A stretch of DNA of 10,511 nt from a virus. Location of the stretch: UHGV virus genome UHGV-1625515; one strand, 5' to 3'. Shown here piece after piece: positions 730 through 10,511 of this stretch. Each line of letters starts with the position of its first letter. The stretch's first letter is position 1. The position numbers were made by a program, and so were the translations under genes. The notes below the pieces were generated by a model. That model was not told the DNA's origin and did not search any database. It saw nothing but the letters and a program-made list of their open reading frames with translations.

Positions 730-1128
730 TTATTGCATTCTGGCCAGGCCGCGCTCTGTCATTTCGGCTGCCACACCGGCAGAGACACGAAACGCCGTTC
801 CCGGCAGCACAAATGCCACAGGTTCATCCCGCGTGGCGTGAAGTGCATCAGTATGCAGCTTCACCAGTGCCACGACCGTGACCAGTTCAGACGTATCCAG
901 AATCACGGTATCCGGCTGCGCTGATCCCACCTCATTTTCATGTCCGGTCAGCACATTTTCCCGGCTGAGAGGGGTGTCCTGACCGGCAGTTTCATCCGTG
1001 TCATCAAGCTCCTCTTCCAGCTCTGCCACACGGAGCGCCAGTTCTTCTTTCGTCCCCGTCAGGCTGACATCACGGTTCAGTTGTTCACCCAGCGAGCGGA
1101 GACGGGCAATCAGTTCATCTTTCGTCAT
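730..1128 (-). CDS. FI: DNA-packaging/head assembly protein gpFI (132 aa)
   Basis: The track ORF (145 aa) contains an internal start MTKDELIARLRSLGEQL that gives the 132-aa lambda FI length. A strong GGAGGAG RBS sits about 5 nt upstream of the ATG at 1128. Sequence matches recalled lambda FI. Confidence 0.9.
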   Translation of the reverse strand: MTKDELIARLRSLGEQLNRDVSLTGTKEELALRVAELEEELDDTDETAGQDTPLSRENVLTGHENEVGSAQPDTVILDTSELVTVVALVKLHTDALHATRDEPVAFVLPGTAFRVSAGVAAEMTERGLARMQ

Positions 1129-1140
1129 GGACTCCTCCAC

Positions 1141-1167
1141 AGAGAAACAATGGCCCCGAAGGGCCAT
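1141..1167 (-). terminator. Perfect 7-bp GC-rich hairpin with a UUCG tetraloop in the E-FI intergenic region, followed by a U-rich tract on the mRNA; likely partial terminator or mRNA-stabilising structure
   Basis: Plus strand ATGGCCC-CGAA-GGGCCAT (about 1150-1167). On the minus-strand mRNA this is a stem with a UUCG loop followed by UGUUUCUCU, then the FI RBS. Confidence 0.4.
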
Positions 1168-1169
1168 GA

Positions 1170-2195
1170 TTACGCCAGTTGTACGGACACGAACTCATCA
1201 GGGTCAGCCAGCAGCATCAGCGGTGCTGACTGAATCATGGTGAACTCACGCGCCGGATCGCCGGTGGTCACCCAGTTTTTCGGGTAACGGGCAGAGGCGT
1301 TAATGCCTTCGCGCTGTGCGTCCGCATCCTGAATGCAGCCATAGGTGCGCAGACCGCGTGCCTGAGTGTTCCCCAGCACCATCGTGTTGTCCGGCAGGAA
1401 GTTCTTTTTGACGTCGTTTTCCACGTACTGTCCGGAATACACGACGATGGCTACATCGCCATACATCCCCTTATAGGACACCGCTTTGCCCAGGTCTTTC
1501 ACCGCTGTCTCCAGCTCGGAATTAGAGCCACGACGGGTATCCAGCTTCTCCTTGACGGCTTTGAAGGAACGGAACAGCGCCCAGCCTTTCGGATCGAACA
1601 CGATGATATTCACCACACCGCTGGCGTTCAGCGCGTAGGCTTCGATATCGTCGGTCGGGTCATACGTGGACTTGTCACGCTTGCTCCACTCCGTGCCGCC
1701 GGACTGCGTGATGTTATTCTCCTCACTGCGGCCCATATCCACCTCAACCGGATCGAAGGCTTCACCGGTCATGGTGTATTTGCCCTTAAGCACGGCAGAA
1801 ACTGCCTGCATCTCTTCGACCTGAGCAATGGCCAGCTCTTCGTCACGCATGTTCTGCATGATGATGCGACGGCGGCGGTAAGCCGGGTCCGCCAGATTCT
1901 GCGGATCTTCATCCGGCAGGCGACGCAGGGTCATCTGCGGATTCACTTCATGCTTCGGCTTGACATATCCCGGCGTAAATTCAGAGGTGGAGCCGCCACG
2001 GGAACGGATAACCTCACCGGAAACAATCGGCGAAACGTACAGCGCCATGTTTACCAGTCCCGGAATTTGTGAGAGATAGACTTTCTCCGTGGTGAAGGGA
2101 TAGCTCTCACGGAAAAAGAGACGCAGAAACAGCGGATCAAACTTAAATTTCTGCTCATTTGCCGCCAGCAGCTGGGCGGTTGTGTACATCGACAT
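1170..2195 (-). CDS. E: Major capsid protein gpE (341 aa, HK97-fold lambda type)
   Basis: The track ORF (350 aa) contains the start MSMYTTAQLLAANEQKFKFDPLF..., which gives 341 aa as in lambda gpE. The C-terminus ...MLLADPDEFVSVQLA matches recalled lambda E. Confidence 0.95.
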   Translation of the reverse strand: MSMYTTAQLLAANEQKFKFDPLFLRLFFRESYPFTTEKVYLSQIPGLVNMALYVSPIVSGEVIRSRGGSTSEFTPGYVKPKHEVNPQMTLRRLPDEDPQNLADPAYRRRRIIMQNMRDEELAIAQVEEMQAVSAVLKGKYTMTGEAFDPVEVDMGRSEENNITQSGGTEWSKRDKSTYDPTDDIEAYALNASGVVNIIVFDPKGWALFRSFKAVKEKLDTRRGSNSELETAVKDLGKAVSYKGMYGDVAIVVYSGQYVENDVKKNFLPDNTMVLGNTQARGLRTYGCIQDADAQREGINASARYPKNWVTTGDPAREFTMIQSAPLMLLADPDEFVSVQLA

Positions 2196-2208
2196 AAAAA
2201 AATCCCGT

Positions 2209-2230
2209 AAAAAAAGCCGCACAGGCGGCC
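2209..2230 (-). terminator. Terminator-like hairpin (GCCGC-CUGU-GCGGC plus U7) in the D-E intergenic region
   Basis: Plus strand AAAAAAAGCCGCACAGGCGGC. On the minus-strand mRNA a 5-bp GC stem is followed by seven U, located between the D stop (2251) and the E start (2195). Confidence 0.4.
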
Positions 2231-8139: not shown

Positions 8140-8164
8140 TGTTCATTCCACGGACAAAAACAGA

Positions 8165-8278
8165 GAAAGGAAACGACAGAGGCCAAAAAGCTCGCTTTCA
8201 GCACCTGTCGTTTCCTTTCTTTTCAGAGGGTATTTTAAATAAAAACATTAAGTTATGACGAAGAAGAACGGAAACGCC
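8165..8278. promoter_or_regulatory. cosB: cosB: terminase (gpNu1) binding elements R1 (about 8165-8179), R2 (about 8205-8219), R3 (about 8263-8278), with an AT-rich stretch between R3 and R2 consistent with the IHF site I1
   Basis: GAAAGGAAACGACAG (8165-8179) and CTGTCGTTTCCTTTC (8205-8219) form a perfect 15-bp inverted repeat. GAAGAACGGAAACGCC (8263-8278) shares the GGAAACG core. Sequences and spacing match the lambda cosB R elements as I recall them. Confidence 0.75.
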
Positions 8279-8316
8279 TTAAACCGGAAAATTTTCATAA
8301 ATAGCGAAAACCCGCG

Positions 8317-8328
8317 AGGTCGCCGCCC
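8317..8328. other. cosN: cosN: 12-nt cohesive-end site (reverse complement of lambda GGGCGGCGACCT), the terminase nicking site. cosQ is expected within about 10-40 bp on the Rz side (about 8335-8365)
   Basis: Plus strand AGGTCGCCGCCC is flanked on one side by CGCGGG..., the reverse complement of the recalled lambda left end, and on the other by CGTAACCTGTCGGATCGCC, the reverse complement of the recalled lambda right end ...GGCGATCCGACAGGTTACG. Confidence 0.8.
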
Positions 8329-8695
8329 CGTAACCTGTCGGATCGCCGGAAAGGACCCGAGAAAATGATAATGATTATCAGTTGCAACAAAATCCAGTTT
8401 CTTCCACCATCGCACCGGACGAGCGACCATGAGGGGACAACGCCACGCTCCGTTAACGCGGTAAACCCCGGTGTGTATCGTTTTTGATTATCCCCGCACA
8501 CTCGCGCAGAGGAGTCTCCCGGTAGGGCTGCGGTCTCTGTTCATGTGGGAATACGGCGACGATACTGCGCAAAGACATGCTTCAGAAATACATAAGTAAA
8601 CTAAAATATTGTATCTCTGTGGCTAATTACGTAAATTGGTGGCTTGGCCCCTTTAGCCACCGGCAAATCTTCAGCGGATTATCCTTGGCCGGTTT

Positions 8696-9169
8696 TTATC
8701 TGAGGCATTGCTCACGAATGTATAGCTGTGCCCCTTCCAGCTGCTTCTGCATTGTCATCAACCGTTCTCTGAGGATGAAATAATCCCGTTCAGCGGTGTC
8801 TGCCAGTCGGGGGCCGGTTGCATTATCCACGCGGGCGGTGCCGGTGGCTTCACGCACGGGACCTGGACAGGTGGCGTTGATACGCAGGCGCTTACGACCA
8901 GCGGCAACATCAGCACGCAGAGTTTCATTTTCAGCTCTCGCATCGGCTAATTCCCTCGAGTATTTTGCATCGAGCGCAGCAACATCGCGCTGGCGCACCT
9001 GCATATCAGTAATGGTGGCGTTTGCCAGCTCCAGCTCTCTGGCTTTTTTATCGCGCTGCGCTTTGTAGGTGATGGCGTTATCGCGGTAATGGTCTGTTGC
9101 CATCCACAGCGCTCCACAGGCCACCAGCAGAATAACGATAAACGCGGAAAGCATTCGGTTTATGTTCAC
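8696..9169 (-). CDS. Rz: Rz-type inner-membrane spanin (i-spanin). Start uncertain: GTG at 9169 or ATG at 9154
   Basis: The ORF has an N-terminal TM segment ([16 protein letters not shown]), then [15 protein letters not shown] and a coiled-coil-like periplasmic domain ending ...[22 protein letters not shown]. It is clearly homologous to lambda Rz but diverged (roughly two-thirds identical by eye). Confidence 0.85.
8758..8943 (-). CDS. Rz1: Rz1 outer-membrane lipoprotein spanin (o-spanin), fully embedded in the +1 frame of Rz
   Basis: The 61-aa [64 protein letters not shown] has a lipoprotein signal with a lipobox Cys and a proline-rich mature region. It closely resembles recalled lambda Rz1 (MLKLKMMLCVMMLPLVVVGC...). 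Confidence 0.8.
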
Positions 9170-9297
9170 CCCAGCAGCCCCGACGAAGACAACATCATCC
9201 AGGCCATGGAAAGAAAAAGAGCAACCAGCATTAGTGAAAATGAAATGCCGACAATTACACAGAGGATCTTCGCCAGCGTTATGAGTTTGTCTGACAT
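9166..9297 (-). CDS. Hypothetical 43-aa single-pass hydrophobic peptide ([43 protein letters not shown]), function unknown
   Basis: Internal ATG of track ORF 9166..9387, preceded by a strong GGGAGGA Shine-Dalgarno about 6 nt upstream. Its stop overlaps or abuts the Rz start (GTGA-type junction). About 30 consecutive hydrophobic residues. No family recognised by eye. Confidence 0.45.
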
Positions 9298-9311
9298 GCT
9301 TAATCCTCCCT

Positions 9312-9494
9312 TCACGATTTCAACGCAATGACCAGTTTTGCCAGCCCATACAGCATCGGGGACACAGCAACACCGACCGCCACCCACTTAATGGCAAAAG
9401 CCAGTGCTCTGCTGATGTCATCAGTTACAGGCGCTTTCAGTTCAAGGCCGTTTTTCATAGTCAACCTCAACAGAATTCGTTTATACTTCTCCAT
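9312..9494 (-). CDS. Hypothetical 60-aa protein with a basic N-terminus and hydrophobic/amphipathic C-terminal segment ([60 protein letters not shown]). An alternative GTG start at 9527 would give 71 aa
   Basis: ATG at 9494 with an AAGGGAG RBS upstream. Stop lies 2-3 nt before the RBS of the next small ORF, giving an operon-like arrangement. The ORF lies immediately downstream of a hairpin terminator. No recognisable family. Confidence 0.4.
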
Positions 9495-9527
9495 GTTCTC
9501 CCTTGCCTTATCCAAGGTCAGAAACAC

Positions 9528-9570
9528 AAAACCCCGCTTGCAGCCAACAAACGGGGTTTTTACTTTTATT
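9528..9570. terminator. Bidirectional Rho-independent terminator-like hairpin between the endolysin gene and the small-ORF pair
   Basis: Plus strand CCCCGCTTG-cagccaa-CAAACGGGG gives a 9-bp stem with one mismatch and a 7-nt loop. It is followed by TTTTTACTTTTATT on the plus strand and by TTTTGTGTTTC on the minus strand. Confidence 0.5.
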
Positions 9571-9650
9571 CACTTAGTTTTTGTCAGTTCGCAGGATTTC
9601 GTGTTATCCGTCCGTGTGAGCAAACCGCATTTTTCAGCAAAATATTCTGC

Positions 9651-10184
9651 TTATCTGTCAATTCCCCAGCACGCCAGCGCGCTCTCCTGGTCACGCCGCG
9701 ATACCTGCCCGTAACAGTTATTTGAGCGATTCCGACAGTCCCTGCCGCCGTCATATATCCATCGGCGGATTTCAGCACATGCACCTTTCCGGTCTCCGGC
9801 GTTCAGTTTCCGGTAAAACGTTGAGGTGAAGCATTTCGAAGGCCCGATGTTGTACGGACAGAATGACGCGATGCCCGCTTTCTGCGGTTCAGTCAGTGGC
9901 AATTTGATGTTTTTCTCCACCCATGCCAGCGCCTTATCACGTTCAATGGCATTAACCTGAGCGCATTTTTCCTTCGACAACTTCATGCCCGGGACGACAG
10001 GTTTGCCATCCACCATGATGGCACCACGGCAGATGGTCCAGATCCCCGCACCATCACGGTATGCCGTGGTGTGGTTACCTTCTTTTTCGTCAAGAAACTG
10101 GTCGAGGATTTCAGGCGCAGAAGCACCTGTGGCAATCATCGCCAGAACGGCTACCGATAAACCATAGTGGAGTTTCCTGCTCAT
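9651..10184 (-). CDS. R: SAR (signal-anchor-release) endolysin, T4-lysozyme-like muramidase (GH24), 177 aa
   Basis: N-terminal basic stretch plus a Gly/Ala/Ser-rich weakly hydrophobic segment (MSRKLHYGLSVAVLAMIATGASA), followed by the catalytic E-x8-D-x5-T motif (EGNHTTAYRDGAGIWT). GGGGAGAG RBS overlaps the holin stop, with the ATG 4 nt after it. Confidence 0.88.
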   Translation of the reverse strand: MSRKLHYGLSVAVLAMIATGASAPEILDQFLDEKEGNHTTAYRDGAGIWTICRGAIMVDGKPVVPGMKLSKEKCAQVNAIERDKALAWVEKNIKLPLTEPQKAGIASFCPYNIGPSKCFTSTFYRKLNAGDRKGACAEIRRWIYDGGRDCRNRSNNCYGQVSRRDQESALACWGIDR

Positions 10185-10188
10185 CAGC

Positions 10189-10404
10189 TTACTCTCCCCG
10201 CGCAGCTTTGCGCCGGTCTTCTTTAATCTTGAAATACAGATTCGTCAGGTATGTCAGGAACCCCAGACACAGGCTCCCCAAAACCCCGATAGCAGCCCAC
10301 TGTGACGGAGTAACCTGATCCAACCACTGTAGAAACCAGTAACCCGCACTGCCCGCAGAAGTACCATAGGCTATGCCCGTTGATATTTTTTCCATCTGAT
10401 ACAT
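10189..10404 (-). CDS. S: Phage-21-type class II holin (pinholin), 71 aa, with dual-start motif (Met1 and Met4)
   Basis: [71 protein letters not shown] is near-identical to recalled phage 21 S21 (71 and 68 aa forms). It has two TMDs, the first Gly/Ala/Ser-rich and SAR-like, and a charged C-terminus. Confidence 0.9.
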
Positions 10405-10435: not shown

Positions 10436-10469
10436 AATAAAAAAGGCCATCAGTGTTTTACTGATGGCC
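10436..10469 (-). terminator. tR'-like intrinsic terminator immediately upstream of the holin: the expected target of Q-mediated antitermination of the late transcript
   Basis: Minus strand GGCCATCAG-UAAAACA-CUGAUGGCC forms a perfect 9-bp stem followed by UUUUUUAUUU, about 35 nt upstream of the holin start. Confidence 0.6.
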
Positions 10470-10511
10470 CTGCCCCGCCGTTACAGCATTGTGCCCGGTT
10501 CGGGTTGTGTG

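Follow-up and report, generated by a model that had tools for sequence, protein, structure and literature searches.

A predicted intrinsic terminator at the upstream edge of a mobile small-ORF cassette in the lysis operon of lambdoid phages

The viral genome UHGV-1625515, a stretch of 10,511 nucleotides (nt) that we refer to as the window, represents the late region of a lambdoid phage with its genes on the minus strand, and contains a terminator-like hairpin (type A, 9528..9560, minus strand) between the endolysin gene R and the first of two small open reading frames (ORFs), ORF-A and ORF-B, which precede the spanin genes. Judging from the sequence comparisons below, we put at roughly 55% the probability that this hairpin is an intrinsic terminator marking the 5′ edge of a mobile small-ORF cassette, with downstream expression being dependent on Q. 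Lambdoid late operons are transcribed by a Q-modified, terminator-resistant polymerase (PMC7547250). RNA polymerase unmodified by Q would stop at the hairpin on the late (minus-strand) transcript, and Q-modified polymerase coming from pR′ would read through it during lytic growth, so that ORF-A, ORF-B, Rz/Rz1 and the packaging genes would be made only from Q-modified, terminator-resistant transcription. Transcription starting downstream of tR′ could then not leak into ORF-A, ORF-B, the spanins and the packaging genes; mapping by Sy et al. in Shiga toxin (Stx) phages places a primary start site in the interval from tR′ to stx2AB. The selective reason may be the shielding of possibly membrane-damaging genes from leaky expression in lysogens, and S-R transcripts that end in the hairpin after termination would in addition be protected from exonucleases. 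We infer the stop and its efficiency, as well as the read-through, from the features described below. A first-pass annotation of the window had already suggested an effect on non-antiterminated minus-strand transcription, which gains comparative support from the fixed position of the hairpin, its replacement by an unrelated one in other loci, the covariation of its stem and the retention of its late-sense U-tract.

On the plus strand the hairpin reads AAAA-CCCCGCTTG-cagccaa-CAAACGGGG-TTTT (9528-9560), with a G+C-rich core of 9 bp (9532-9540 paired with 9548-9556, loop 9541-9547) flanked by four A-U pairs (9528-9531 paired with 9557-9560); this is the 9-bp GC-rich stem with T-tracts on both sides that had been noticed between the endolysin gene and the small ORF. 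It was the top and longest match of a terminator scan of the window, with a core containing six G-C pairs and a stem extending to 13-14 pairs (14 on the minus strand) around a loop of 5-7 nt. The hairpin is near-palindromic and folds on both strands, as RNA folding, one of the checks proposed at first pass, confirmed. The fold of the minus (late-sense) strand is the more stable, at −21.6 kcal/mol (z = −4.48) compared with −14.3 kcal/mol (z = −3.51) for the plus strand, and each beat 200 of 200 shuffles. Two G·U pairs of the minus-strand stem become C·A mismatches in plus-strand RNA. The late-sense U-tract (9520..9531, minus strand; T-tract TTTTGTGTTTCT) places UUUUGUGUUUCU 3′ of the hairpin in minus-strand RNA, and the plus-strand U-tract (9557..9570; T-tract TTTTTACTTTTATT) places UUUUUACUUUUAUU, the complement of the A-rich stretch that lies 5′ of the hairpin in the late sense. 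The plus-strand tract is somewhat better than the minus-strand one, its sole advantage, and the initial impression that the plus strand is the even better terminator has to be reversed in view of its weaker stem. The element thus has the attributes of an intrinsic terminator, namely a G+C stem of at least 5 bp, a short loop, a U-tract immediately 3′ and a stem kept by selection, and, having a hairpin and a U-tract on both strands, also the structural features of a bidirectional one, albeit with a weaker plus-strand stem. The hairpin sequence occurs once in the window, and its reading as a repeat or miniature inverted-repeat transposable element was rejected. As noted at first pass, no plus-strand gene feeds into it: the ORF list of the window contains no credible plus-strand ORF upstream of the hairpin.

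To compare the position across phages, we used 80 viral loci fetched solely because they encode an R homologue, 74 of which could be anchored at the R stop codon. The type A hairpin was present in 53 of these, starting 89-90 nt after the R stop, and 20 others instead contained a type B hairpin of unrelated sequence (GGCACC-GTAAT-GGTGCC, GGCACCGTAATGGTGCC), which lies ~110 nt beyond the stop and has the late-sense tail UUUGUCAUUUCUG. The single remaining locus has neither hairpin, and there Rz abuts R. In Stx phages and in the Sakai prophages Sp6, Sp10 and Sp11, the cassette that starts with the type B hairpin is that of the antirepressor gene ant. In the K-12 prophages DLP12 and Qin, R overlaps Rz, and both the spacer and the hairpin are absent; R likewise abuts Rz in locus L018. 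By this comparison, the R-Rz joint is an insertion hot spot, with each kind of insert starting with a hairpin that resembles a late-sense terminator. The occurrence of two unrelated hairpins at one position, both followed by a late-sense U-tract, argues for selection on late-sense termination. Where the type B hairpin heads the ant cassette in Stx phages (L002, 3360-3395, and 20 of the 74 R-anchored loci), a non-coding stretch of ~170 nt separates it from ant and could accommodate the gene's own promoter.

The stem is maintained by compensatory substitution. In a covariation alignment of 20 distinct hairpins (A1), 95.0% of the cells were paired on the late-sense strand vs 91.5% on the opposite strand, and three pairs had changed on both sides (A-U/G-C; U·G/A-U/U-A/G-C; U-A/C-G). 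None of 500 shuffles reached as high a covariation score, and slid partner registers fell to ≤62% paired. These compensatory changes in diverged copies bear on the idea that the hairpin has no current function, being a hitch-hiking remnant or a conserved linker that marks a recombination joint. Such an explanation would accommodate the clustering of mosaic breakpoints around the hairpin, the tolerance of terminators anywhere in an antiterminated operon, the weakening substitutions (CGAGG, CCCCA) found in some prophage copies, and the frameshifted ORF-A present in 7 of 47 copies. Yet the stem is kept, other cassettes have an unrelated hairpin with a late-sense U-tract at the R-Rz site, and the U-tracts persist beside non-homologous leaders, so that we regard a functionless hairpin as improbable.

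Pairing also discriminates between the strands. The alignment has 14 G·U cells on the late-sense strand vs 5 on the antisense strand, and in the window's family the late-sense stem is more stable by 4-8 kcal/mol. The late-sense U-tract is good in every variant, even next to non-homologous leaders. The plus-strand tail is good in the lambdoid copies and poor (CUUUCGCUUU) in most copies from phages resembling vB_Apl-pPE4 (see below). The preference for the late-sense strand is real but modest, and the element is near-symmetric.

The homology breakpoints between the window and other phages (9496, 9519, 9556 and ~9566) surround the hairpin, and their distribution places it in the downstream cassette: it travels with the small ORFs and not with R. 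At least four cassette types follow the type A hairpin: ORF-A plus ORF-B, as in the window; the Sp4 type with a diverged ORF-A homologue (Sakai hairpin copy at 1184826-1184858); a 45-aa FDFSKLIREIR ORF (FDFSK ORF; locus L003); and a four-ORF array in which ORF-B and the C-terminal part of ORF-A appear in the opposite order (locus L004). The same leader precedes three different ORFs, namely ORF-A, its Sp4-type homologue and the FDFSK ORF of pPE4-like phages. All cassette ORFs encode small hydrophobic proteins of PHROG families without assigned function. ORF-A (60 aa, 9312..9494, minus strand) was recognized as an open reading frame with a C-terminal hydrophobic helix in its hydropathy profile; it belongs to phrog_1115/4493/3246, which have no assigned function, and is a hypothetical protein in the Prokaryotic Genome Annotation Pipeline. 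ORF-B (43 aa, 9166..9297, minus strand; phrog_4906) is strongly hydrophobic (maximum KD19 hydropathy 2.89, compared to 1.88 for ORF-A) and is also present after ant in Stx-phage cassettes. Searches of ORF-A and ORF-B against Pfam and NCBIfam gave no match, and those against PHROGs returned only families without function.

More broadly, the R-Rz interval holds a mosaic of small ORFs (9166-9494 in the window; L003, L004, L207) comprising ORF-A, ORF-B, the FDFSK ORF and a fourth ORF beginning MSAELIRAMAFAIRIV, in an order and number that vary between prophages. Both ORF-A and the FDFSK ORF have an internal ATG at codon 13-14 after a Shine-Dalgarno (SD)-like GAGG or GGGAG, and the Sakai annotation uses the shorter form (ECs_1094). 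Frameshifted or truncated ORF-A accounts for the 7 of 47 viral-contig copies mentioned above (L038, L093, L116 and L129 among the loci), which suggests decay in some prophages or sequencing errors.

The unit is also found outside lysis operons. In phage vB_Apl-pPE4 and 17 further viral contigs (L213-L229), the A-rich flank, hairpin, U-tract, leader and FDFSK ORF sit after a baseplate gene inside the tail operon, with no R gene upstream of the unit in any of them. In vB_Apl-pPE4, reported from Actinobacillus (L005/L212, record 37828-38070), the unit adjoins a reversed antirepressor gene. Compared with the E. coli copy, the non-coding part of the pPE4 unit is 80% identical and the ORF nearly identical, a likeness that would imply either recent transfer or an enterobacterial origin of that phage. 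A pattern scan of genome contigs for the hairpin gave 13 matches in unrelated organisms, which we took as chance, and none in Escherichia, Salmonella or Actinobacillus.

The spacer that separates the hairpin from the R stop, a non-coding stretch (9561..9650, minus strand), follows a different pattern. It is conserved and common to type A and type B loci, and the segment 9556-9655 is ~89% identical in Stx phages that lack the type A hairpin; being shared by both kinds of locus, the spacer is part of the R module. Its conservation also speaks for the possibility that the hairpin chiefly stabilizes the read-through late mRNA or directs its processing and does not act as a polymerase stop, either protecting S-R from 3′ exonucleases after cleavage or defining a 3′-untranslated-region-derived RNA made of the 90-nt spacer and the hairpin. 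Q-modified polymerase would ignore the hairpin as a terminator (PMC7547250), and Hfq usually binds a 3′ module of just this form, a stable hairpin with a U-tail. However, the spacer's ~89% identity is not above that of the R gene itself, no promoter or conserved structure was found in it, the hairpin segregates with the downstream cassette, and the Sakai Hfq data have nothing at the site, although their filter drops sites within 100 bp of genes. We therefore consider a role mainly in RNA stability or processing to be rather remote.

Downstream of the hairpin, the leader (9495..9527, minus strand) contains a small stem-loop (9501-9505 paired with 9513-9517) and the SD region of ORF-A, AAGGGAGAA (9504..9496, minus strand), so that the hairpin lies only 33 nt before the ORF-A start codon (9494..9492). 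An alternative internal start at 9458 is preceded by GAGG. A 71-aa reading of ORF-A from GTG 9527 was rejected, as its start falls inside the hairpin; the preferred starts are ATG 9494 or, alternatively, the internal ATG 9458. A promoter scan of the late strand from R to ORF-A listed no site; the best late-sense match, in the spacer or overlapping the hairpin, reached 8/12 with poor −10 hexamers and was not accepted. With no promoter-like site between R and ORF-A, ORF-A depends on read-through.

The same arrangement recurs upstream of the holin gene S. A second late-sense terminator hairpin of 12 pairs (10443..10471, minus strand; −22.6 kcal/mol, z = −3.6) lies ~38 nt upstream of the S start codon, with the tail UUUUUUAUUU and, on the plus strand, no U-tract. 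The layout of a terminator, a short leader with an SD sequence and a membrane-protein gene thus occurs twice in the operon, for S and for ORF-A. No Rfam match was obtained at 10443-10471. In related prophages, the position upstream of S (esterase - small RNA (sRNA) - holin - lysozyme) harbours sRNAs of the PasA/PasC/AgvB type.

The near-symmetry of the element leaves room for a different assignment, in which the hairpin mainly ends a plus-strand RNA of ~70 nt transcribed from a promoter inside the first ORF codons; this RNA would pair with the SD sequence, serving in cis as an antisense guard or an antitoxin of the type I-like sort, or else use its anti-SD 5′ end against targets in trans, as is the case for other prophage sRNAs. 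We consider this assignment possible but doubtful. The window has a sigma-70 promoter-like site, TAGTCA-18 nt-TATACT (9458..9487, plus strand; −35-like 9458-9463, −10-like 9482-9487), opposite codons 3-13 of ORF-A, with 9 of 12 consensus matches. The hypothetical RNA (9494..9566, plus strand) would comprise a 5′ anti-SD stretch, UUCUCCCUU, the small stem-loop and the terminator, and folds at −20.2 kcal/mol (z = −2.5). Its predicted ends, ~9494-9496 and ~9563-9568, give a length of 68-75 nt, complementary to the SD region at 9496-9504. The geometry of the ~70-80-nt antisense transcript envisaged at first pass accordingly holds, including coverage of the ORF-A SD, but the start codon, which that transcript was thought to overlie, is barely reached. 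Likewise, the TATACT and weak −35 element on which it was based are present, but not above chance, the window having four promoter-like sites of such quality vs 6.5 ± 2.1 in shuffles.

Comparison with other cassettes lends the antisense RNA some plausibility. The geometry is exact, with the TATACT ending 40 nt before the hairpin; the diverged but homologous Sp4-type ORF keeps TGGACA-18-TATACT in the same place, and the unrelated FDFSK family has an extended −10 (TGcTAAAAT) on the antisense strand, 39-43 nt from the hairpin and unchanged across 18 sequence variants. Over its first 36 nt, the FDFSK ORF is 96% identical among variants vs 80% for the rest. Given the background in such phages of 0.38 sites per kb for the 9/12 rule and 0.27 per kb for the extended −10, the chance of a match in the 14-nt placement window is P ~0.004-0.005. 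Moreover, the mobile unit includes the A-tract from which the plus-strand U-tract derives, its A-rich flank being kept in pPE4-like phages, and an antisense gene would naturally bring with it a terminator located 5′ of a mobile ORF. There are precedents in the late regions of related prophages: AsxR and AgvB are short antisense-oriented prophage sRNAs with their own promoter and terminator (PMC4104026), and the 66-nt HnrS pairs with a ribosome-binding site (RBS) (PMC13502914).

Several of these signals can nevertheless arise in other ways. The promoter-like site is nearly invariant among ORF-A copies, but its hexamers lie in coding sequence with synonymous or conservative changes and a frame-preserving 3-nt indel, so that coding alone can explain the conservation. 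The −10 of the FDFSK family was found after looking for it, A/T-rich early codons inflate the number of −10-like hexamers, promoter-like sites are not enriched in the window, and the candidate combines a weak −35 with an 18-nt spacer. The strand data also point away from a plus-strand RNA: in most variants the plus-strand stem has a C·A mismatch (−14 vs −21 kcal/mol), most pPE4-like copies have the poor tail CUUUCGCUUU, and the type B hairpin at the same R-Rz site has no U-tract on its other strand. No Rfam family, including AgvB, AsxR, STnc100 and Sok, matched at or above its gathering threshold (GA); at a permissive E-value, the only hit was a rimP leader over 9496-9584 (27.5 bits vs GA 47, E = 0.44), which we discarded as a generic terminator look-alike. 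Table S2 of Tree 2014 (Hfq cross-linking data, CRAC, for Sakai) has no entry at the Sp4 hairpin copy, although the filter used there (antisense to a coding sequence, or >100 bp from one) would have excluded the site. A literature search on the hairpin sequence, ECs1094/1095, WP accessions and lysis-cassette terminators found nothing, including no expression data.

Two described sRNAs were examined as candidates and rejected on location: EcOnc33 (~71 nt) is located after the esterase gene and not at the R-Rz hairpin, and EcOnc10-12, which are HnrS, lie after Rz and are absent from the window. In Sakai (NC_002695.2), HnrS consists of TTGAAA-18-AAAAAT and a terminator just after Rz, at ~1946944-1947009; relative to the NC_002695.1 coordinates published in 2014, there is an offset of ~125 nt at HnrS. 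The window segment 8386-8571 shares 93% identity with Sakai Sp10 sequence located just downstream of Rz and flanking hnrS (EcOnc11; L211, 5757-5942), but the homology stops a few nt short of the HnrS terminator, and the window therefore lacks the HnrS gene.

The antisense proposal would turn the hairpin, the 33-nt leader and the first ~12 ORF codons into a self-contained gene for an antisense sRNA of ~70 nt with an anti-SD 5′ end; accompanied by small membrane-protein ORFs that replace one another, this gene would move between the lysis cassettes of lambdoid phages and the tail operons of other phages, a scenario that on the sequence comparisons above we judge unlikely. If correct, it would define a previously undescribed prophage sRNA family, guarding a late membrane protein in cis (type I-like without a toxin promoter), targeting host RBSs in trans in the manner of HnrS, or combining the two modes. 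Such an RNA would be a new member of the late-region prophage sRNAs of pathogenic E. coli and would offer a simple system in which to study how lysis accessory genes are controlled by antisense RNA.

The Q-dependent terminator that we favour also faces objections. The strand asymmetry is modest, and the pPE4-like variants have a perfect stem on both strands. The 5′ terminator of the module would be equally natural as part of an antisense gene. Little transcription in a lysogen should get as far as the hairpin, since tR′ and the S-proximal terminator come first, and the benefit of a third barrier is assumed. Finally, DLP12 and Qin manage with R overlapping Rz and without the hairpin.

The closest known relatives of the predicted terminator are the intrinsic terminators of Q-antiterminated lambdoid late operons, such as tR′ and those flanking morons (Juhala et al. 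2000 as cited in PMC4104026). Like them, the hairpin combines a G+C stem and a U-tract at a module joint inside a late operon, would be expected to halt unmodified polymerase but let the Q-modified form pass, and lies at a known insertion hot spot, Stx phages carrying ant at R-Rz; it is not tR′ itself. A classical moron consists of promoter, gene and terminator, with the terminator at the 3′ end, whereas the hairpin sits 5′ of the cassette, whose ORFs have no promoter that we could find. The cassette shares with morons the presence of extra DNA at a variable site (DLP12, Qin and L018 without an insert, Stx phages with ant). We rejected its classification as a moron, as the best late-sense promoter match is the 8/12 site with poor −10 hexamers and no terminator was found between ORF-B and Rz, which overlap. 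With bidirectional terminators the hairpin has in common that an upstream A-tract mirrors the downstream U-tract and that it folds on both strands; these normally lie between convergent genes, whereas here no plus-strand gene converges and the plus-strand stem is weaker. The element is therefore of a known kind, a near-symmetric intrinsic terminator at a mosaic joint of an antiterminated late operon. It is mildly unusual in standing at the 5′ and not the 3′ end of an inserted cassette and in moving into a different operon of a different phage type.

The hypothetical antisense RNA would resemble AsxR and AgvB (RF02703, RF02702), HnrS and PasA-D, from the late regions of enterohaemorrhagic and enteropathogenic E. 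coli, in its length (~70 nt vs 51-66 nt), its orientation relative to the late genes, its weak sigma-70 promoter and its intrinsic terminator; as in HnrS, its 5′ end could pair with an RBS. It would differ from them in having no sequence or Rfam similarity and in its position between R and Rz, the known sRNAs lying upstream of S or downstream of Rz. Type I toxin-antitoxin systems (SymE/SymR, Ibs/Sib; hokW/sokW in Sakai Sp5, PMC8621323) are similar in their small hydrophobic ORF, the possible antisense RNA over the SD and the compact mobile unit. ORF-A (60 aa) and ORF-B (43 aa) conform to the small hydrophobic proteins of these systems, usually <60 aa, but they lie inside the lysis operon and are co-oriented with it, and their toxicity is only putative. 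Membership was rejected: no toxin promoter exists between R and ORF-A, and neither ORF matches a known toxin family (Hok, Ldr, Ibs, TisB, ShoB, Zor and others). On both counts, the resemblance is functional at most.

Tiny membrane-protein genes between endolysin and spanins are also known from the lysis cassettes of other phages, a likeness that concerns the ORFs and not the hairpin, and we found no sequence relationship. In P2, the small membrane-protein gene lysA is placed between the endolysin and spanin genes, and Mu has an accessory lysis protein for its signal-anchor-release (SAR) endolysin. P1 has the holin LydA and the antiholin LydB alongside a SAR endolysin (PMC9025707).

Should the hairpin be a Q-dependent terminator, it would point to a design rule shared by a widespread group of E. 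coli prophages, to which ~39% of complete genomes have a match: holin and accessory small membrane-protein genes would each follow a strong terminator and be expressed only by antiterminated polymerase, and the terminator would move along with the cassette. Such a rule would be useful for annotating lysis cassettes and predicting leaky prophage expression, although it would not be surprising. The window segment 9300-9660 is matched in 2109 of 5426 complete E. coli genomes, and 9150-9700 is 100% identical to Escherichia phage PhiR5_2 and 95-99% identical to many prophages.

The remaining genes of the operon follow the lambdoid order, all on the minus strand. S encodes a holin of the phage 21 family (10189..10404; Pfam PF04971, E = 5e-35), R an endolysin with a hydrophobic N-terminus (9651..10184; Phage_lysozyme PF00959, E = 8e-25) and Rz a spanin (8696..9169; PF03245, E = 7e-50) with Rz1 embedded in it (8758-8943). 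Several relatives (L003, 2818-3132; L004, 2272-2544; L207, ECs_1097) have an annotated opposite-strand ORF between S (or ydfR) and R, with no counterpart in the window. Elsewhere in the window, a short G+C hairpin with a U-rich tail (1150-1167, minus strand) stands exactly at the joint of a 350-aa ORF (1170..2222) and an ORF at 730..1167; its fold is no better than those of shuffles (z = −1.2). Beyond Rz on the minus strand, a lambda-like cos region is followed by Nu1 and the terminase gene. This region spans ~8140-8330, between Rz and Nu1, and contains GGGCGGCGACCT on the minus strand near 8318-8329 with an adjoining cosB-like sequence.

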